30,523 nt of DNA from a virus. Lineage: Duplodnaviria > Heunggongvirae > Uroviricota > Caudoviricetes. The notes beneath the pieces are model-generated. The model saw nothing but the letters and a program-made list of their open reading frames with translations. It was not told the DNA's origin and did not search any database. Shown one piece after another: positions 4,128 to 30,523 of the stretch. Position 1 is the first letter of the stretch. Every line of letters begins with the position of its first letter. The position numbers were made by a program, and so were the translations under genes. The stretch covers positions 1 through 30,523 of the IMG/VR virus record IMGVR_UViG_2737471824_000004, one strand, 5' to 3'.

Positions 4128-4418
4128 ATGTCGACTGAAAATGATGAAATCATTAACTCCCTGATACGCCAAATTAATAATTTTGATAAAGCATTGCAGC
4201 ATGCTGCGGCGCGTAGTGATATAACTCTTTTAGCAATTTCATTTCTTGCATCTGTTATGGATAAAAATGAAGTCGTACGACAGAGTCTTGTTGATTATAT
4301 CGACTCGCTTCAACCCGGCACTTTCAATCATGAGAGCTTCAATCATGAGAGCTTCAATCATGAGAAAGAGCATGTTAAGTCTGTAATTAATTCTCTTATT
4401 TTGAATCAAAAGAATTAA
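4128..4418 (+). CDS. hypothetical protein (96 aa) with tandem SFNHE repeats; low-GC insert
   Basis: ATG 4128 with strong RBS AGGAGGG 5 nt upstream; low-GC coding sequence; opposite strand to the surrounding leftward operon; 3' end overlaps the convergent gene 4396..4716. Confidence 0.5.
   Translation: MSTENDEIINSLIRQINNFDKALQHAAARSDITLLAISFLASVMDKNEVVRQSLVDYIDSLQPGTFNHESFNHESFNHEKEHVKSVINSLILNQKN
4322..4366 (+). repeat. 15-bp tandem repeat (TTCAATCATGAGAGC x about 3) encoding SFNHE-SFNHE-SFNHE
   Basis: Direct reading of 4321..4370. Confidence 0.8.
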
Positions 4419-6847: not shown

Positions 6848-7352
6848 ACAGGTTTGCGAGGCTCTGGATGCCTGGGTATGCAAACCAGGAATGACACAGG
6901 AGCAGGCGACGATATTAATCACAGAAGCATTCTGGGATCTGAAAGAGCGCCCGAACATCGATGTTCAGCGTGTCACGCTTGATGATGGCGGGGTTGATCA
7001 GCGTGCGCTTGGCGTTAACCGGGTGAAGATATTCGAACGCTGGAAGGCTATCGACACCAGGGATAAGCGTGAAAAATTCACGGCGCTGATTCCGGCAATT
7101 ATGGAGGCTATCCGGATTAGTGATTTCAGGTTGTACCGCGAAATTACTGATGGAAAAAGCATTACGTACATGATTGCCGGGTTAAACAAAGAATATGTCG
7201 ATGTGGTGGAGTCCGGGCTGCTTTTTGCAGATCCAGCTGTTGTGGAACGTGAGACAGACGAGCTTATAGAAAAAGCAATCGCTTTCAAGCGTGCCTATCG
7301 TCACCAGTACCAACAAAAAGCCGGATGGAATTATGAGCCTTCTTTTTGCTGA
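6831..7352 (+). CDS. YdaT-like protein (173 aa), function uncertain
   Basis: ORF-track ORF overlapping the Cro-like stop; position after the Cro/YdaS-like gene matches the Rac order racR-ydaS-ydaT-ydaU-ydaV; family assignment from memory only. Confidence 0.4.
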   Translation: MKITPEQVCEALDAWVCKPGMTQEQATILITEAFWDLKERPNIDVQRVTLDDGGVDQRALGVNRVKIFERWKAIDTRDKREKFTALIPAIMEAIRISDFRLYREITDGKSITYMIAGLNKEYVDVVESGLLFADPAVVERETDELIEKAIAFKRAYRHQYQQKAGWNYEPSFC

Positions 7353-8310
7353 ACGCCCGCTGGTTATAAACACACAGCTGGCGATGAAGATTGGTTTAAA
7401 CGAAGCAATTGTGTTGCAGCAACTGCATTACTGGTTGAGGGATACCAGTTCTGGCATGGAATGTGATGGCGTTCGCTGGATTTACAACACAACGGAACAA
7501 TGGCTGGAACAGTTTCCGTTCTGGTCAGAGTCAACGTTAAAGCGTGCGTTTGCAAGTCTGAAAACGCTGGGGCTTTTGCGTAGCGAAAAGCTCAATAAAT
7601 CGAAGCGTGACATGACTAATTTTTACACAATTAACTACGATAGCGCGCTTTTAGATGATGGCAAAGTGAACGAATCCATCGGGTCAAAATGCGCCACTCC
7701 ATCAGGTCAAAATGACACGATGGAAGAGGTCAGGATGAAACGTTCCATTGGTTCAAAACGACCCAATGTCATCAGGTCAAAATGGCACGATGATCCTACA
7801 GAGAATACAACAGAGAATACAACAGAGAATACAACAGAGAATAAAAAACTCTCTTGTCCGGACGCTTCGCAACCGGACGAGTTGACGGCTGAACAGGCGT
7901 TTTTAACCCGCCATCCTGATGCTGTTGTGTTCAGCGTGAAAAAACGCCAGTGGGGAACCCGGGAGGATTTGACATGTGCGCAGTGGATCTGGGGGCGGGT
8001 TGTAAACCTGTACGAACAGGCTGCCAGTGACGATGGTGAGATCACGCGACCGAAAGAGCCCAACTGGACGGCGTGGGCCAATGACGTGCGCACAATGCGG
8101 ATGCTGGATGGAAGAAGTCACAGACAAATTTGCGAAATGTTCAGCCGGGCACAACGGGATCCGTTCTGGATAAAAAACATCAAGAGCCCGGAAAAACTCC
8201 GTGAGAAATGGGATGAACTGGTTATTCGACTGTGGCGTGGTCCCGCGCAGCGTTGCGTGAATCATATTTCTGAACCGGATACCGAAATTCCGCCGGGTTT
8301 CAGGGGGTAG
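7333..8310 (+). CDS. phage replication initiation/replisome organiser protein (O/YdaU-like, about 325 aa)
   Basis: ATG 7333 (track M at 7291 is GTG); N-terminal motif NEAIVLQQLHYWL typical of replisome-organiser N domains; iterons inside the gene; followed by a DnaC-like loader. Confidence 0.6.
   Translation: MSLLFAERPLVINTQLAMKIGLNEAIVLQQLHYWLRDTSSGMECDGVRWIYNTTEQWLEQFPFWSESTLKRAFASLKTLGLLRSEKLNKSKRDMTNFYTINYDSALLDDGKVNESIGSKCATPSGQNDTMEEVRMKRSIGSKRPNVIRSKWHDDPTENTTENTTENTTENKKLSCPDASQPDELTAEQAFLTRHPDAVVFSVKKRQWGTREDLTCAQWIWGRVVNLYEQAASDDGEITRPKEPNWTAWANDVRTMRMLDGRSHRQICEMFSRAQRDPFWIKNIKSPEKLREKWDELVIRLWRGPAQRCVNHISEPDTEIPPGFRG
7678..7784. repeat. putative origin iterons: four copies of ATCRGGTCAAAATG-like motif (7678, 7701, 7747, 7771)
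   Basis: Direct repeats at 23, 46 and 24-bp spacing inside the O-like gene, analogous to ori-lambda lying within gene O. Confidence 0.5.
7798..7845 (+). repeat. 12-bp tandem repeat ACAGAGAATACA x 4 (encodes TENTTENTTENTTEN)
   Basis: Direct reading; immediately downstream of the iterons. Confidence 0.8.
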
Positions 8311-10295: not shown

Positions 10296-10765
10296 GTGCA
10301 CCGGCAACCATTCTTGATATGTGCTGCGGCAGCCGCATGTTCTGGTTTGATAAGAATGACGACCGGGCGATATTTAGCGATATCAGAAAGGAAGAGCACA
10401 CATTGTGTGATGGACGACGCCTGATTATCAGTCCTGATCTGATAGCTGATTTTCGTGCACTACCATTTGCAGACGCATCTTTTTCGATGGTTATATTCGA
10501 TCCTCCGCATCTTGAGCGTGTTGGTGATAACGCCTGGATGGGAAAGAAATATGGACGGCTGAATAAAGATACCTGGCGTGATGATTTGCGGCAGGGATTT
10601 AAAGAAGCCTTTCGTGTGTTGCGTCCATACGGCGTTCTGATTTTTAAATGGAATGAAACGCAAATACCTGTTCGCCAGATATTGGTGCTGACCGACAGAA
10701 AACCTGTTATCGGTCAACGAACAGGAAAAAACGATAAAACCCACTGGATTATTTTTATGAAATAG
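10292..10765 (+). CDS. putative small DNA methyltransferase (157 aa; motifs DMCCGS and FDPPH)
   Basis: GTG start after AGGAGGTGA, overlapping the upstream stop (GTGA); FxGxG-like motif I near the N-terminus and a DPPH motif resembling the (D/N)PP(Y/F/W/H) motif of amino-methyltransferases. Confidence 0.4.
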   Translation: MSAPATILDMCCGSRMFWFDKNDDRAIFSDIRKEEHTLCDGRRLIISPDLIADFRALPFADASFSMVIFDPPHLERVGDNAWMGKKYGRLNKDTWRDDLRQGFKEAFRVLRPYGVLIFKWNETQIPVRQILVLTDRKPVIGQRTGKNDKTHWIIFMK

Positions 10766-10909
10766 GCATCCAGTGAGTAGGTTAGTAAGGTTACAGATAC
10801 GTATATCTGAATAATTAAATTCAGTTCTGTAAATAAAATTTAATCCTTAACCGGAGGGATTTCTGCACCCTCAGAACATCAGGAGGCCACCCGAAAGGGC
10901 GGTAGTGAA

Positions 10910-11092
10910 ATGCGAAAGTTCAAAATAATTATTGAAACTGGAATAGCTGGTGGAGATTTTGAGGATGTATTCGAAGTGGACGATGACGCAACACCTGATG
11001 AAATTCATGACGAAGCAAAAGAAATTTTCTTTAACTACTGCAATTACTCATATCACGAAATAAAAGACGAAGAGGAAGAACAAAATGGCTGA
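10910..11092 (+). CDS. hypothetical small acidic protein (60 aa)
   Basis: ORF-track ORF; weak RBS. Confidence 0.35.
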   Translation: MRKFKIIIETGIAGGDFEDVFEVDDDATPDEIHDEAKEIFFNYCNYSYHEIKDEEEEQNG

Positions 11093-11261
11093 TTTTGGTT
11101 CAACTAAATACAACATCAGTTTTGAAGAATGGCATGAACTGTTAATGGACTATGCCGAGTTACGTGGTGGCAGTGCTGCTGATGCTGAAGCCTGGCGTGA
11201 TGACTACGAAGCAGGAAAAACTCCGGTCGAAGCATATTGTGATGAGTGGGGCGATGAATGA
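11085..11261 (+). CDS. hypothetical small protein (58 aa)
   Basis: Hand translation MADFGSTKYNISFEEWHELLMDYAELRGG...; overlaps neighbours by a few nt at both ends; below track cutoff. Confidence 0.35.
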   Translation: MADFGSTKYNISFEEWHELLMDYAELRGGSAADAEAWRDDYEAGKTPVEAYCDEWGDE

Positions 11262-11617
11262 GCGAGATTAATTATCAGGAAGGGTATGAAACGGCGGGGC
11301 AAGCAAAACCAGTGGCATGGCGATATCGCTACGTGAAAAAAGGCGTTACGGACTTTCAGGAGAAGATGTGGGTTGGTGACTGGAAATATGTACCGACAAA
11401 AGAGGATTGTAACGACAGGCCGAACTATGAAATTCAGGCGTTATTCACTGCCCCGCCTGTGCCACTGACACCAGAAGGATTGATTAAAGCAGTGCGCTTC
11501 TATGAACAGGTTAAGCGTGAAAATCCGCCAGTCGAAACCGGAGCATGGAAAGACGCTGTTGACTGGGTGCTCAAAGAGGCTTGCCAGGCTGTAAACATTG
11601 GCATCAAAGGAGAGTGA
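11258..11617 (+). CDS. hypothetical protein (119 aa)
   Basis: ORF-track ORF; ends ...NIGIKGE, encoded by the 17-bp repeat that also ends the next gene. Confidence 0.45.
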   Translation: MSEINYQEGYETAGQAKPVAWRYRYVKKGVTDFQEKMWVGDWKYVPTKEDCNDRPNYEIQALFTAPPVPLTPEGLIKAVRFYEQVKRENPPVETGAWKDAVDWVLKEACQAVNIGIKGE

Positions 11618-11620
11618 GAG

Positions 11621-12111
11621 TGCAGATTTCACCGGTTACTCTTCGTGTTGCGAAGGCGTTTATATCCAGACATCACCGACACAATAAACCCCCGGTGGGG
11701 CATAAATTCAGCATTGGTCTGAGAAATGATGCCGGAGAATTGATAGGTGTGGCGACAGCCGGTCGACCTGTTGCACGACATTTGGATGATGGATTAACGC
11801 TTGAAGTAAATCGCACATGTACCACAGGAGAACGCAACGCTAACAGCGCGCTTTATGGTGCTGTCTGGCGGGCAGCAAAAGCTATGGGTTATCAACGTTG
11901 TATTACGTACACCCGGGCAGATGAATCAGGAGCATCTCTTCGCGCAGCTGGTTTTGTTCGTGTGAAAGAGCTTCCTCCAAGAAAAAGCTGGGCGGAATCA
12001 AGCGTCGCCCTGCGGAGTAAACGCGATCCAGTCGGAAACGGTGGTGTTCCTCGTGTGCTCTGGGAAATCAGGAGAATGAGTACCACTGGTATTCGCATCA
12101 AAGGAGAGTGA
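11621..12111 (+). CDS. hypothetical protein (163 aa), weak GNAT-acetyltransferase-like motifs
   Basis: GTG 11621 preceded by AGGAG inside the 17-bp repeat; segments ERNANSALYGAVWRAAKAMGYQRCITYT and SGASLRAAGF resemble GNAT motifs (weak). Confidence 0.4.
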
Positions 12112-12112
12112 T

Positions 12113-12376
12113 ATGGCAACTTTGACAAAAAAAGAACGGGCATGGTTGAACGAATTACAGGACGTTCTTGATCGCTGCCCATCACCGAAAAAAATTGGTT
12201 TTTACACCATTGGCGATAAAAGCATTTACCTGTATGACCTACGCCGCATGGATGAAATCATGGAGGCTCTTGATAATCGTTCGTCGATGGATTGGTGTGT
12301 TGCTGTTCATGATATGAATGCAGGGTTTGATGAAAAGATTTTGTTCCCCTCATCAGTTGAAAGCACTGCGGGTTAA
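12113..12376 (+). CDS. hypothetical protein (87 aa)
   Basis: ORF-track ORF; ATG directly after the 17-bp repeat, which supplies its RBS. Confidence 0.45.
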   Translation: MATLTKKERAWLNELQDVLDRCPSPKKIGFYTIGDKSIYLYDLRRMDEIMEALDNRSSMDWCVAVHDMNAGFDEKILFPSSVESTAG

Positions 12377-12386
12377 GGAGTAACAC

Positions 12387-12554
12387 ATGACCACTATTAC
12401 CAAAGAACGTATTGAATTGTTCATTAAAAACCCGCTTGAAAACGGGCTTACCCGTGGTGAACAAATGGAACTGGCACGGATTGCGCTGGCATCGCTGGAA
12501 GCAGAGCCGGTTGTGTTCTGGTTTGAAAAATATCAAGAAGGGGCTACGGCATGA
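12387..12554 (+). CDS. hypothetical small protein (55 aa), paralogue of the N-terminal part of 12551..12895
   Basis: Hand translation [12 protein letters not shown]...[15 protein letters not shown]...; RBS AAGGAG. Confidence 0.35.
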
Positions 12555-12895
12555 CGACTTTTACCAGAGAGCAGTTAATAGCTCACGCAGAGGAGACTAT
12601 TGAAGCACAGAGACTGTGCATACCGGGCACAATCGACCATGACATCATCCGCACATATAAGATGGATATTGCTGTTCTGGAAATCGCACTGGTATCGCTG
12701 GCAGCAGAGCCAGCCGGTAAATTGCATGAATACAAACCAGTGGGATATCAGCGTCTGGTCGATGAGTTAACCATGCTGGTAAAGCAGTTAACCTGGCAAC
12801 TGAGGAAAGCGAAGCCAGACTGCAAATTACCGGATAAGGCGATGAGTTATCTGGAGCGGAACGGACTGATAAGCGTGGAGGATATTTTACGATGA
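12551..12895 (+). CDS. hypothetical protein (114 aa)
   Basis: ORF-track ORF; starts [12 protein letters not shown]..., paralogous to the preceding small ORF. Confidence 0.45.
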
Positions 12896-12982
12896 CCTGG
12901 CCTGAAGCATTAACAACGGTAGGAATTGCGATGGCGGTGGCGCTGGTGGTGTATTCGATTTGCCGCTGGGGATAAAAACGGT

Positions 12983-13010
12983 TTGCGGGAAAAGGAGAGT
13001 TAAGTAGAAT
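12983..13010 (+). promoter_or_regulatory. promoter of the hok mRNA (-35 TTGCGG, 16-nt spacer, -10 TAGAAT)
   Basis: Hexamers at 12983..12988 and 13005..13010; predicted start near 13017 coincides with the 5' element complementary to the mRNA 3' end. Confidence 0.4.
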
Positions 13011-13186
13011 TGCAGCGGGTGCTTGAGGCTATCTGTCTCAGGCATGAACACCAAAAGGCAGATAGAGAAAAGCCCCAGTTAACATTACGCGTCCGGCAAG
13101 ACGCTTAACATTAATCTGAGGCTCAATCTATGAACGGCAAATCTAGGTTAGCCTCTTACGTGCCGAAAGGCAAGGAGAAGCAGGCT

Positions 13187-13342
13187 ATGAAGCAGCAAAA
13201 GGCGATGTTAATCGCCCTGATCGTCATCTGTTTAACCGTCATAGTGACGGCACTGGTAACGAGGAAAGACCTCTGCGAGGTACGAATCCGAACCGGCCAG
13301 ACGGAGGTCGCTGTCTTCACAGCTTACGAACCTGAGGAGTAA
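13187..13342 (+). CDS. hokD: Hok/Gef-family type I toxin (51 aa; HokD/RelF-like)
   Basis: MKQQKAMLIALIVICLTVIVTALVTRKDLCEVRIRTGQTEVAVFTAYEPEE: transmembrane helix plus LCEVR...EVAVF signature; AAGGAG RBS; in-frame upstream extension from 13130 is a mok-like leader frame. Confidence 0.75.
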   Translation: MKQQKAMLIALIVICLTVIVTALVTRKDLCEVRIRTGQTEVAVFTAYEPEE

Positions 13343-13410
13343 GAGACTAGGCGGGGGAGAAATCCCTCGCCACCTCTGATGTGTCAGGCATCCTCAATGC
13401 ACCCGCGCTT

Positions 13411-13433
13411 AACCCGCTTCGGCGGGTTTTTCT
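13411..13433 (+). terminator. intrinsic terminator of the hok mRNA (AACCCGC-TTCG-GCGGGTT plus T-run)
   Basis: Direct reading. Confidence 0.6.
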
Positions 13434-13508
13434 AGCATCTATCTGGTTGACAAAGTTGATGTTAAATGGAAATATGGTTGACACCAAAACAACAAGGATA
13501 TTACGGTC

Positions 13509-14123
13509 ATGCAGAATTTATCTCAACAGTTGTTAGAAGCATATGACAAGGAGTGCCGCAAAGAGCTTTCGATCGCGTTAGCACAGGCTTATCTTCATTC
13601 GCATATGAAGGCAAAAGAGTTTGGTTCTTTTTGGGCTCAAGCACAGTCATATTTGCGCTGGTTTTATGCCGATGCATTGCTTGAGAATGCGGCTAAGCGT
13701 GTGGGGCTGGATTTTGAAGTCGGTAGCAATGCTGCTAAAAATTGTAAACACATTGCGATTCACTCGAACAACTGGAAAATGACGGCACATCATTTATCGG
13801 GTAATGCGCCACTTCCTAAGCAGGCATTGTATAGAGCTGTTTACGCTAATCAAAATTATGAATTGAATTTTGGGGATGAAAATGCCGACTCCCTGGATGG
13901 GAGAGCGTCTGGTGGACATGTTTATATGTTACATGATGGCAGTAATCAGCACTTGTCCAAACTGAATTTAACTGTTCCTTCTTCGGATAATTACGGGATT
14001 CTTTATACTGAGTCTTTACCAATTATGACGATGGTAGAAGTTGAAGCAGAAAATGTGGATTCTGAGATTGAAGATAAAATCAAGATTCTTACCGAACAAA
14101 TAATTAAATCACAGCAATCATGA
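13509..14123 (+). CDS. hypothetical protein (204 aa), first gene of a two-gene low-GC module
   Basis: ATG 13509 with AAGGA RBS; stop overlaps the downstream start (ATGA); two TGGTTGACA boxes upstream (13445..13452, 13477..13484). Confidence 0.55.
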   Translation: MQNLSQQLLEAYDKECRKELSIALAQAYLHSHMKAKEFGSFWAQAQSYLRWFYADALLENAAKRVGLDFEVGSNAAKNCKHIAIHSNNWKMTAHHLSGNAPLPKQALYRAVYANQNYELNFGDENADSLDGRASGGHVYMLHDGSNQHLSKLNLTVPSSDNYGILYTESLPIMTMVEVEAENVDSEIEDKIKILTEQIIKSQQS

Positions 14124-15265
14124 GCATGAATATCGCACAAACACCATTTACTGATAAATCGTTTAATCCTCGTCGCCTTGAGGAGGCAAGAGAGGCAAAA
14201 GGGTTGACGATGGCTGAACTTGCCAGAGTGCTCAATATTTCAAGACAAGCTATTTCGTCATTTGAGAAGGGGTTGAAGTCTCCCTCTGCTGATACACTTT
14301 CTGCAATAGCCAAGGTGTTAGGATTTCCAGAACGATTTTTCTTAGCCTCCAGTGCTTCTCCATCTCTGGAGGGGGCGATTCATTTTAGAAGTCGTTCAAC
14401 TGCGACCAAAAAGGCTCGAGTTACAGGGAAAACACGTGGGCGTTGGGCGGCATTAATATTGGATGAATGTCTAAAATATGCTCAATTACCAGATGTGGTT
14501 CTGCCTGAATTCGATATTATTGATTTTGAGGTTCTGTCTCTATCTGATATTGAGGATATGTCCACCCAATTAAGGCGTTTTTGGGGGTTAGGTGATGGTC
14601 CAATACTCAATTTAACTAGACTTGTTGAAAATAAAGGAATCGTGGTTTCTCATTTACCTTCTGGTGAGAAAGTTGATGCCTTTTCGTTCTGGCATAATGG
14701 GCGGCCTTTAATTATGTTAGATAGCTCGAAGACGGCTGTTCGCATGCGATTTAGTCTTGCTCATGAACTTGGCCATTTAATTATGCATAGGGCAGTGGAG
14801 GATGACTACCTGAATGATAAAGAATTATTCGACCTGGTGGAGTTGCAGGCCGATTATTTTGCCTCCAGCTTTTTAATGCCAGCCACGACTTTCGGGCGTG
14901 AATTTTATAGTCCAAATTTATCAGCGTTAGAACGATTAAAACTACGTTGGATTACATCTATCGGTAGTATTGCCATGAGGAGTCATAGCCTTAAGTTAAT
15001 CAGCGATAATCAGAAAAGCTATATATTTAAGCAATTAGCGCCATTCCATCGTAGGGAGCCGTTAGATGATGCAATCCCAAAAGAAGAGCCTGAGTTACTT
15101 AATAAGTTACTTTTACTTCTTGATAAGCATTCAATCATAAAGGTAACTGAGTTAACTGATATCTTTGCTCTTCCCTTAAATGAGTTATCTGCAATTACAC
15201 GATTTAAAGAATCAGATATGATTCATTCTGACAATGTTATTTCATTTACCATAAAACAAAAATAA
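14120..15265 (+). CDS. XRE-family HTH fused to ImmA/IrrE-type zinc metallopeptidase (COG2856-like), 381 aa with C-terminal extension
   Basis: HTH LTMAELARVLNISRQAISSFEKG; HEXXH motif LAHELGHLIMH. Confidence 0.75.
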   Translation: MSMNIAQTPFTDKSFNPRRLEEAREAKGLTMAELARVLNISRQAISSFEKGLKSPSADTLSAIAKVLGFPERFFLASSASPSLEGAIHFRSRSTATKKARVTGKTRGRWAALILDECLKYAQLPDVVLPEFDIIDFEVLSLSDIEDMSTQLRRFWGLGDGPILNLTRLVENKGIVVSHLPSGEKVDAFSFWHNGRPLIMLDSSKTAVRMRFSLAHELGHLIMHRAVEDDYLNDKELFDLVELQADYFASSFLMPATTFGREFYSPNLSALERLKLRWITSIGSIAMRSHSLKLISDNQKSYIFKQLAPFHRREPLDDAIPKEEPELLNKLLLLLDKHSIIKVTELTDIFALPLNELSAITRFKESDMIHSDNVISFTIKQK

Positions 15266-29539: not shown

Positions 29540-30150
29540 TGGATACCAGGAATTCAGAAGCGGACGTCCGCAATGCCCGTTTTAATGAAGATGGCAGCAT
29601 TACCTGTGAGGTGTTCATGGCAGACCGTTCTGATGACAGTCATCGGGTATATGTACCTTATACTGCCAGAGCTTCAGACCCGACAGAATTCGGGTTAAGG
29701 CTCTGGTCAGGACTGATATCAGGGGCCTGGGGTGGAGTCACGCCGTTTGTGGTGACAGAGGAGATACTGGAAAAGGCCAGAAATCAGAAATACGGTGAAA
29801 TCAGTCGCTGGCGTGACAGCCAGGAGAACAGCAGTTTTGTTTTTGAATTCAGTGGTCATCGCTGGGATGCCGGAAAGGCGTCACAGTCCAGACTGACACC
29901 TGTTGTTGCGGTGGCAGGAAACGGGCTGTTGCCGGAGCATTTTTTCTGGACGGATGCGGATAATCAGGATGTCACTCTGACGCCGGAAGAGCTGATACAA
30001 CTGGATACTGCGATGAATGCGGCAATGGTGATGCAGGGGTTTAAAATCCACGAACGCCAGCGCCGGATGAAAGAAGAAGTGGCAGGGCTGACCGCACTGC
30101 CGGATATTCGTGCGTATCCTGTTGGCTGGCCGGAGGGTGATGATGAGTAA
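29539..30150 (+). CDS. tail-fibre assembly protein (Tfa-like, 203 aa)
   Basis: Start overlaps the fibre-fragment stop (TAATG); position and C-terminal W-P-containing end typical of Tfa. Confidence 0.55.
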   Translation: MDTRNSEADVRNARFNEDGSITCEVFMADRSDDSHRVYVPYTARASDPTEFGLRLWSGLISGAWGGVTPFVVTEEILEKARNQKYGEISRWRDSQENSSFVFEFSGHRWDAGKASQSRLTPVVAVAGNGLLPEHFFWTDADNQDVTLTPEELIQLDTAMNAAMVMQGFKIHERQRRMKEEVAGLTALPDIRAYPVGWPEGDDE

Positions 30151-30523
30151 GTTCACCACACCGGCCATTCTGGAGATGCTGGATGATTACCGCTGGCGGC
30201 TGGTTGAGCCGTTTGAATTCTGGCTGACGGATAACCCGGATGATGTGATTTATGTTCCGGAGGGATATGTGACGGACCTTGCCAGTGTGCCCCGGCTTCT
30301 GTGGGCACTGTTCCCGCCGCATGGTCGTTATGCGAAAGCCGCGATTATTCATGACTGGCTGTATGACAATGCCCTGCGCACGAAGGCGGAAGCGGACAGG
30401 ATATTTCTGGATGCGATGACGGTGCTGGGAGTTCCACGCTGGCGCAGACGGTTGATGTATCTTGCGGTAAGGTTGTTCGGGAAAGGGAAATACAGCGACA
30501 CGCAACAGGGGACCTGTTGCTGA
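30140..30523 (+). CDS. hypothetical protein (DUF1353-like, 127 aa) downstream of tfa
   Basis: ATG 30140 with GGAGGGTGA RBS; stop at the window end; family assignment from memory, weak. Confidence 0.4.
   Translation: MMSKFTTPAILEMLDDYRWRLVEPFEFWLTDNPDDVIYVPEGYVTDLASVPRLLWALFPPHGRYAKAAIIHDWLYDNALRTKAEADRIFLDAMTVLGVPRWRRRLMYLAVRLFGKGKYSDTQQGTCC

Follow-up and report, generated by a model that had tools for sequence, protein, structure and literature searches.

Whether the mosaic joints of phage genomes are set by linker sequences or arise from random illegitimate joins followed by selection has been debated since 1978, most mosaic joints being devoid of a linker. Short conserved sequences at gene boundaries were proposed as homologous recombination sites in lambdoid phages, as set out in PMC3029335, which cites Clark 2001 and Susskind & Botstein 1978. 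The present work concerns a pair of identical 17-nt direct repeats that bracket a single gene in a 30,523-nt stretch of Caudoviricetes DNA (IMG/VR record IMGVR_UViG_2737471824_000004, positions 1 to 30,523; hereafter the window), which is a Rac/lambdoid-type E. coli prophage. With a probability of roughly 75%, the two 17-mers are copies of a conserved gene-boundary island of E. coli lambdoid and some P2-like prophages that serves the swapping of open reading frames (ORFs). Like the lambdoid boundary (linker) sequences, this island is a short conserved sequence located exactly at the boundaries of accessory genes and has unrelated modules as its neighbours from phage to phage, whereby the position at gene boundaries, the joining of unrelated modules and an alternative slot content including an empty slot were all found at this locus. 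It differs from them in placing a foreign C-terminal tail on an enzyme that is not an Ea22 protein (XF1762) and in its range, which extends beyond the exo-xis region to the early-right operon of a Rac-like prophage and to P2-like prophages. The sequence comparison supports assigning the locus to the 'boundary sequences' of lambdoid phages (Susskind-Botstein 1978; Clark 2001, HK620), i.e., to a mechanism long proposed. In the literature searched no mention was found of the 17-mer, of 'IRIKGE' or of 'XF1762', six 12-mer matches being unrelated primer or construct sequences.

The ea22 genes are known as mosaics in which N-terminal parts are conserved and C-terminal domains can be exchanged (PMC10834534). 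That of phage lambda occupies positions 29847-30395 of NC_001416 (complement) and its last 27 nt are exactly GCTGGCATTCGCATCAAAGGAGAGTGA (…SDAGIRIKGE; this and all protein ends quoted below are directly followed by the stop codon), which contain the exact 17-mer of the window; the 27-nt island thus lies at 29847-29873 on the minus strand (L402 1048-1074). Copy 2 of the window together with its upstream bases (CTGGTATTCGCATCAAAGGAGAGTGA) agrees with the 3' end of lambda ea22 in 24 of 25 bases. When lambda was compared to contig L022, the sequence right of the island was found to be identical except for an 11-nt indel, while the sequence left of it is unrelated. The match of lambda Ea22 to the Pfam family Ead_Ea22 is confined to residues 2-101, which leaves the tail outside. 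Two differences separate lambda from the window: by Pfam the ORFs that flank the repeats here are no Ea22 homologues, and whereas the window's island abuts a start codon, in lambda about 190 nt of non-coding sequence separate the island from ea8.5, which renders the island's Shine-Dalgarno (SD) sequence an 'orphan'.

Two further systems were considered for comparison. Morons are ORFs flanked by a promoter and a terminator of their own, as defined in PMC3029335. Like a moron, the bracketed gene is accessory: some prophages carry it, and relatives have no such gene at that position. Its Mom-like product, possibly a DNA-modification protein by remote homology, may benefit phage or host. Unlike a moron, the gene has neither a + strand promoter of its own nor a convincing terminator; it is embedded by apposition of stop and start codons and bounded by the island. 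A moron was rejected on the basis that no + strand promoter-like site was found in 10700-13500, the promoter scan yielding a single promoter-like match, on the minus strand, as compared to 3.9 expected, and that terminator-like matches remained at chance level and did not flank the XF1762 ORF. Integron cassettes resemble the locus by analogy only, being single promoterless ORFs that are exchanged inside an operon, at a short junction that recurs; the locus differs in lacking a palindromic attC-like structure, and exchange here would rest on sequence identity and not on a dedicated recombinase.

The repeat pair and its coding content

The features of the locus are as follows (window coordinates; aa, amino acids).

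11601 to 11617, + strand: boundary copy 1, core GCATCAAAGGAGAGTGA; final 5 codons and stop (TGA) of the 119-aa ORF, together with the SD for the XF1762 gene.
12095 to 12111, + strand: boundary copy 2, core GCATCAAAGGAGAGTGA; final 5 codons and stop (TGA) of the XF1762 ORF, together with the SD for the 87-aa ORF.
11258 to 11617, + strand: 119-aa ORF, upstream gene, phrog_660 (a mosaic family) by PHROGs match, ending …NIGIKGE.
11620 to 12111, + strand: bracketed 163-aa gene, XF1762 family and Mom-like, GTG start (NCBIfam NF045478, phrog_1384).
12079 to 12111, + strand: non-native tail of the XF1762 gene by homologue comparison, codons 154-163 (STTGIRIKGE) plus stop, holding copy 2.
12113 to 12376, + strand: 87-aa ORF, downstream gene, phrog_1714, its ATG 1 nt past the TGA of copy 2.

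Across the whole window the 17-mer GCATCAAAGGAGAGTGA occurs exactly twice, both times on the + strand, and no further site was found within the 30,523 nt even when 3 mismatches were allowed. The copies are spaced by 494 bp, and none of 100 dinucleotide shuffles yielded two matches. A longer match, consisting of ATT, one mismatched base (G or C) and the 17-mer, was identified at 11597-11617 and 12091-12111, with 20 of 21 positions identical. Copy 1 codes for G-I-K-G-E-stop of the 119-aa ORF and supplies the motif AAGGAG (11607-11612) 7 nt ahead of the GTG at 11620, while copy 2 codes for R-I-K-G-E-stop of the 163-aa ORF and supplies AAGGAG (12101-12106) 6 nt ahead of the ATG at 12113. The two copies represent different length alleles of one island, …AACATTGGCATCAAAGGAGAGTGA (IGIKGE; …NIGIKGE) versus …ACTGGTATTCGCATCAAAGGAGAGTGA (GIRIKGE; …TGIRIKGE). 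With the SD located in the last codons and the stop positioned 1-2 nt from the next start, this geometry renders translational coupling plausible. A previous sequence-only reading of the window had described identical 17-bp direct repeats that bracket one 163-aa gene, each encoding IKGE-stop of the upstream protein and the SD of the downstream gene; the exact pair was located and its coding content confirmed by the ORFs and the AAGGAG spacing of 6-7 nt. Its coordinates for the second copy (12095..12111) were exact, those for the first (11602..11618) one base too high.

As a control for background frequency, 596 Gb of species-representative genomes were scanned, which returned 113 matches to the 17-mer; the taxonomic spread of these matches is uninformative, as they are mostly chance matches and lambda contamination. 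Phage lambda accounts for 37 of the 113, namely 33 matches at 99.5-100% identity and 4 at 90-97% over partial length (enteric contigs included), and 75 of the remaining 76 occurrences lack a junction context, a number near the roughly 70 chance matches that we estimate for a random 17-mer. As the background is near chance and both window copies, 494 bp apart, sit at stop/start junctions, the pair is far beyond chance. Many of the lambda-matching contigs are about 1 kb in length and belong to assemblies of organisms unrelated to each other (Streptomyces, Prevotella, Streptococcus, Shewanella, Pseudomonas, Bradyrhizobium); the 33 near-identical matches look like contamination of public assemblies with lambda DNA.

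Identical direct repeats that directly flank one gene would also be expected from a target-site duplication by a mobile element carrying the 163-aa gene, or could be taken for an integron attC-type site, yet the probability of either is close to nil. No terminal inverted repeats or palindrome were found in or beside the repeats, the cassette consists of one XF1762 ORF with neither transposase nor integrase, and the 17-mer is present at scores of junctions that lack this gene, lambda ea22 included. Moreover, the extended identity of copy 2 is to the end of lambda ea22 and not to copy 1, so that copy 2 is not a duplicate of copy 1. On these grounds (no inverted repeats, XF1762 as sole ORF, many gene-less junctions) a transposon target-site duplication was ruled out. 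Folding z-scores of 71-nt windows at the two copies amounted to -0.36 and -1.26 and are not significant; they give no evidence of a structured RNA element and, together with the missing inverted repeat, speak against an integron attC. No integrase was found among the window ORFs scanned, which are a subset of all its ORFs. A Chi-like hotspot was likewise set aside, as 3 of the 8 bases of the island's GCTGGCAT do not agree with Chi (GCTGGTGG).

A boundary island shared by unrelated genes

An exact-match scan of IMG/VR identified the 17-mer in at least 120 contigs, a set chosen for containing it, and thus documents that it is widespread. Together with the window and loci L001-L003, at least 133 occurrences were assigned to at least 14 upstream and at least 24 downstream flank classes in at least 66 combinations, and clustering of the distal flanks gave at least 17 upstream and at least 28 downstream types that are unrelated to each other. 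Pairwise identity between flank types was at the random level of 0.25-0.30 beyond positions -15 and +5 and reached 0.66-0.74 at -10 to -1, the 100% identity inside the 17-mer being the search criterion itself; this profile argues for a conserved island that spans about 27 nt and, in addition, the start codon. The island measures about 21-27 nt, has the 17-mer as its core and follows the consensus GCTGGCATTCGCATCAAAGGAGAGTGA (…AGIRIKGE). It was found in E. coli lambdoid prophages and in some P2-like prophages. At the protein level, (A)GIRIKGE terminates about 13-14 upstream proteins whose ends are dissimilar among themselves, similarity being lost abruptly before the tail; the carriers include XF1762, several ends of ea22-type arrays (lambda Ea22 among them) and others without an assigned function.

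BLAST of 11258-12376 versus phages and 5,426 complete E. coli genomes revealed that segments of homology begin and end at both copies. In this query the two copies correspond to positions 344-360 and 838-854; many segments end at 355-362, many start at 826-852, and some span 829-881 only. A histogram of high-scoring-segment-pair ends for 283 loci peaks at window positions 11595-11624 and 12075-12134, and in addition at other gene boundaries. Among 80 IMG/VR loci of the 87-aa gene, which were not chosen by the 17-mer, at least 5 different gene ends were found to precede it. At the position equivalent to copy 1, the genes that precede XF1762 homologues in phages of greater distance end in the alleles AAGIKEESE, AAGIKVEAE, AGIRINGEG and AGIQIQGGE. 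The gene preceding XF1762 nearly always ends in some (A)AGI…E allele plus SD, even where protein identity amounts to 80-87%.

These data bear on the possibility that illegitimate recombination takes place anywhere, that selection keeps those joints which fall at gene boundaries, and that the island is a good translation-initiation region hitch-hiking with one of its neighbours. Illegitimate recombination is held to be the main source of most mosaic joints in PMC3029335, and two observations point in its direction: the left edge of identity differs among junctions, with 27, 21, 18 or only 12 nt kept, and the fusion of the XF1762 gene with its tail (…AGGAGAATGA / GTACC…, see below) lies outside the island, lacks extended homology and has the appearance of an illegitimate or microhomology-mediated event. 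This explanation was nevertheless considered unlikely. Hitch-hiking is at odds with the island being independent of both neighbours (at least 17 left and 28 right flanks, at least 66 combinations), and independent illegitimate joins would be expected to give varied junction sequences and not the same 17-27-mer each time.

Occupants of the slot

The slot between the 119-aa and the 87-aa genes is polymorphic. It is occupied by XF1762 in the window, in phage PhiR44_2 (L003) and in L286, and the query containing XF1762 was covered to at least 80% in one place in 80 of the 5,426 complete E. coli genomes, both flanking genes being present in one place in 249 of them. An Ea22-like ORF of 146 or 137 aa fills the slot in phage vB_EcoS-689R5 (L002), in L400 and in many genomes, while L285 has a gene of 71 aa there, together with a DUF4014 gene. 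A different two-gene cassette is enclosed in L071 by two exact 17-mers at a distance of 843 bp; one of its ORFs ends …ATGIRIKGE, and the other is Cys-rich and appears to resemble a product annotated as ClpX-like in L003. An empty slot was identified in L059, where a 143-aa gene is followed by a single 17-mer and then directly by the 87-aa gene; the 3' part of this 143-aa gene is a 90% match to that of the 119-aa gene, and in comparison with the XF1762-bearing L003 two alignments were obtained which overlap exactly at the junction. In phage mEp460 (L001), an upstream gene end of this type and one 17-mer are followed by a different gene.

The sequence-only reading had taken the repeats for a modular junction through which a cassette is inserted or exchanged, and had pointed to other genes between the copies and to single-copy junctions without the 163-aa gene as the variation to look for in related prophages. 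Both kinds exist, the former in L002, L400, L285 and L071, the latter in L059 and L001; the 17-mer is neither confined to this locus nor free of cassette variation, and the modular-junction proposal gains support from the shared island, the slot polymorphism and the empty site.

In L400 (E. coli REF1, 662-1076) the Prokaryotic Genome Annotation Pipeline (PGAP) calls the slot gene an incomplete pseudogene (123 nt). Its frame is intact and reads as a 137-aa Ea22-like ORF ending …CRAAMLHGKGE, so that the call is probably an annotation artefact of a mosaic family.

The grafted tail of the XF1762 gene

A set of 78 IMG/VR loci with XF1762 homologues, picked by protein and not by the 17-mer, was used to examine the 3' end of the bracketed gene. 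Distant XF1762 homologues are about 152-153 aa long and end …VLWEIRRMK, …EIRRGV or …EIRRR, while those of the E. coli lineage end …VLWEIRRM-STTGIRIKGE. Nucleotide identity to the native form ceases directly after AGGAGAATGA, and the match to the NCBIfam profile stops at residue 136 of the 163-aa protein. The native ends without tail and the break of identity indicate that codons 154-163 are foreign and brought the island along; the tail of the gene is hence chimeric. In tail-bearing XF1762 alleles the last 27 nt are nearly invariant, with rare single-base changes, and the adjacent sequence is unrelated. As it lies outside the island, the join between XF1762 and the tail was probably an illegitimate or microhomology event, after which the XF1762 gene would have possessed a boundary island on both of its sides. 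Other XF1762 lineages (loci L124-L203) carry different AAGI-type tails, …IRSAAGIKVEVK and …IRRAAGIKWEAE, which suggests that tail grafting is recurrent.

A shared protein end could alternatively result from common descent combined with purifying selection only, meaning that the flanking ORFs are paralogues whose C-terminal AGIRIKGE plus SD was conserved with no role in exchange. Many of the ORFs are annotated as Ead/Ea22-like, and the related, non-identical ends of distant phages (the four alleles quoted above, AAGIKEESE to AGIQIQGGE) resemble a diverging protein/SD motif. This reading is very unlikely, as the tail carriers (XF1762, several Ea22-array ends, others) are non-homologous upstream of the tail, where their identity is at random level, as XF1762 homologues exist both with and without the tail, and as the near-invariant last 27 nt of the tail-bearing XF1762 alleles lie beside unrelated sequence. 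Furthermore, Ead_Ea22 ends at residue 101 of lambda Ea22 and the 119-aa ORF does not match this family.

Even less credible is the idea that (A)GIRIKGE is a functional portable peptide, e.g., a degradation, localisation or oligomerisation tag, which was spread by selection at the protein level. Its appeal lies in the same 7-8 residues terminating about 13-14 dissimilar proteins and in the analogous AAGI-type tails of other XF1762 lineages, yet K-G-E is dictated by the SD AAGGAG in that frame, and the variants GTKGD, HGKGE and TGIKGG alter the peptide while the purine-rich SD is kept.

Proposed exchange mechanism and its limits

The preferred reading, ORF swapping at a conserved boundary island, treats the island as one unit comprising the (A)GI(R)IKGE end codons, a strong SD (AAGGAG) and a TGA 1-2 nt before the next start. 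When the same island lies between unrelated genes in co-infecting or co-resident phages, it would provide a patch of identity, and exchange by homologous or homeologous recombination initiating within this patch would swap whole ORFs in register, whereby the upstream frame, the ribosome-binding site and the tight stop/start spacing would be kept. Such exchange could depend on RecA or, with greater likelihood, on phage recombinases of the single-strand-annealing kind (Red/RecET type); Red-type recombinases are described to act on short or diverged homology (PMC2327257, PMC3945230). The XF1762/Mom-like gene fills one such slot, its own 3' end having been replaced by the island with the addition of 10 foreign codons, and the resulting direct repeat with its spacing of 494 bp would allow for precise deletion of the cassette, a functional single junction remaining. 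Recombination within the island, the recombinase, translational coupling and the direction of the event, gain of the cassette here versus loss elsewhere, are all matters of inference from sequence comparison.

Several points weigh against this mechanism. The exact core amounts to 17 nt and the island to at most about 27 nt, reaching about 40 nt when shared first codons of the next gene are included (as with some downstream genes that begin with TATGGCAACTTTG, where identity covers 30-40 nt), while PMC3945230 gives a lower limit of about 30 bp for Red-beta; the island being at or below this value, exchange events would be rare. Some junctions keep only the 12-nt AAAGGAGAGTGA (…HGKGE, …RTKGE, …SNKGE), which implies that the depth of the breakpoint is variable and that illegitimate joins are possible. 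The locus counts are inflated by near-identical prophages, and occurrences do not equal independent events. When a synthetic junction (119-aa gene, one 17-mer, 87-aa gene) was used as query for empty sites in E. coli, none was seen among the best 40 of 250 records with both flanks, all of which were two-piece matches with a filled slot and spans of 1119, 1067 or 1040 bp. The sole exact empty site that was found (L059) resides in a P2-like context and its left flank is about 90% identical.

The ea22-type island may even be more than a by-product, namely a selectively maintained, recombinase-independent 'plug-in' site, a standardised connector of stop codon and ribosome-binding site for the in-register exchange of single accessory ORFs in polycistronic operons of E. 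coli prophages, an option regarded as doubtful. If it held true, the cargo would include enzymes that are candidates for an anti-restriction role, the Mom-like XF1762 protein among them, the cost would be a common tail of 7-10 residues on unrelated proteins, and the island would represent a homology-based functional analogue of integron cassette sites as well as direct evidence for the Susskind-Botstein linker hypothesis.

Under the preferred reading the locus would be an unusually clear case of a known mechanism and not a new one, and as such unsurprising to phage genomicists. It is an unusually clean linker case in that lambda ea22 anchors a single island of some 27 nt which has dozens of unrelated partners on both sides, in that the slot is polymorphic with several occupants and an empty site, and in that an enzyme gene carries a grafted tail. 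It also offers an easily engineered substrate to measure the effect of a 17-27 nt island on exchange and deletion (RecA, Red, RecET). For annotation it follows that …GIRIKGE tails on unrelated small phage proteins are to be read as junction artefacts and not as domain signatures, and that 'Ea22' labels are spreading to non-homologous ORFs, probably via shared mosaic segments.

Genes of the locus and prophage surroundings

The 163-aa protein matches the NCBIfam equivalog model NF045478 (XF1762) with 203.7 bits (cut-off 50, E 1e-60, residues 3-136), and its close matches are also named XF1762 by PGAP. It further matches phrog_1384, 'Mom-like DNA modification protein', at E 1e-41, while the Pfam family Mom (PF25680) scored 22.1 bits against it, under the gathering cut-off of 27.1; judged from these profiles the protein is Mom-like by remote homology only. 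Its GTG start at 11620 is supported by an ATG at the same position in sister alleles. Neither the 119-aa nor the 87-aa ORF matched a Pfam or NCBIfam family. The Ead_Ea22 domain (PF13935) being absent from both, the part shared with ea22 is the terminal 17-27 nt and not a domain. Many phage and E. coli matches start inside the 119-aa ORF, at query positions 213-217 (window about 11470-11474), which marks a mosaic joint midway through this ORF; its C-terminal half (…GLIKAVRFYEQVKRENPP…) is common to longer ORFs of other phages, some of which are labelled ead/Ea22-like or Ea22.

The window starts within a putatively RecE-like gene, the nearest relative of which carries the annotation '3'-5' exonuclease'. 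It continues with repressor-type helix-turn-helix (HTH) genes, a YdaT-like gene, replication (DnaC-like), DUF1627, the array of small ORFs and a hok-like gene, after which a region follows that matches DUF968, RusA and Q of the relative. The nearest relative among complete genomes is 97.6% identical over 10807-13403.

Downstream of the slot, a 29-nt direct repeat (86% identical) was found at 12480-12508 and 12683-12711, encoding one motif in two adjacent small ORFs (12387-12554 and 12551-12895) which both begin MTT(I/F)T. The region's largest pile of homology end-points (12495-12524) is located on this repeat, which looks like a second, intragenic recombination joint. Clustered repeats were also observed at 7700-7840, within a 339-aa ORF (7291-8310) that lies just upstream of the DnaC-like gene and is without Pfam match; they comprise a dyad-like 23-nt unit, CATCAGGTCAAAATGACACGATG, in three copies and a 12-nt unit, ATACAACAGAGA, in three to four, and by analogy with lambda O they look like origin iterons in a replication-initiator gene. 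Near the early regulatory region, at 4323-4367, a perfect 15-nt tandem repeat (TTCAATCATGAGAGC) is present in three copies, the third of which is degenerate. Finally, L286, the closest relative, lacks segment 13403-15321. This segment contains a 204-aa ORF without assigned family (13509-14123) and, overlapping with it, a 381-aa ORF (14120-15265) combining an HTH with an M78 (ImmA/IrrE-like) peptidase; it could be an insertion of two genes with an accessory or defence role beside the hok-like ORF at 13130-13342.

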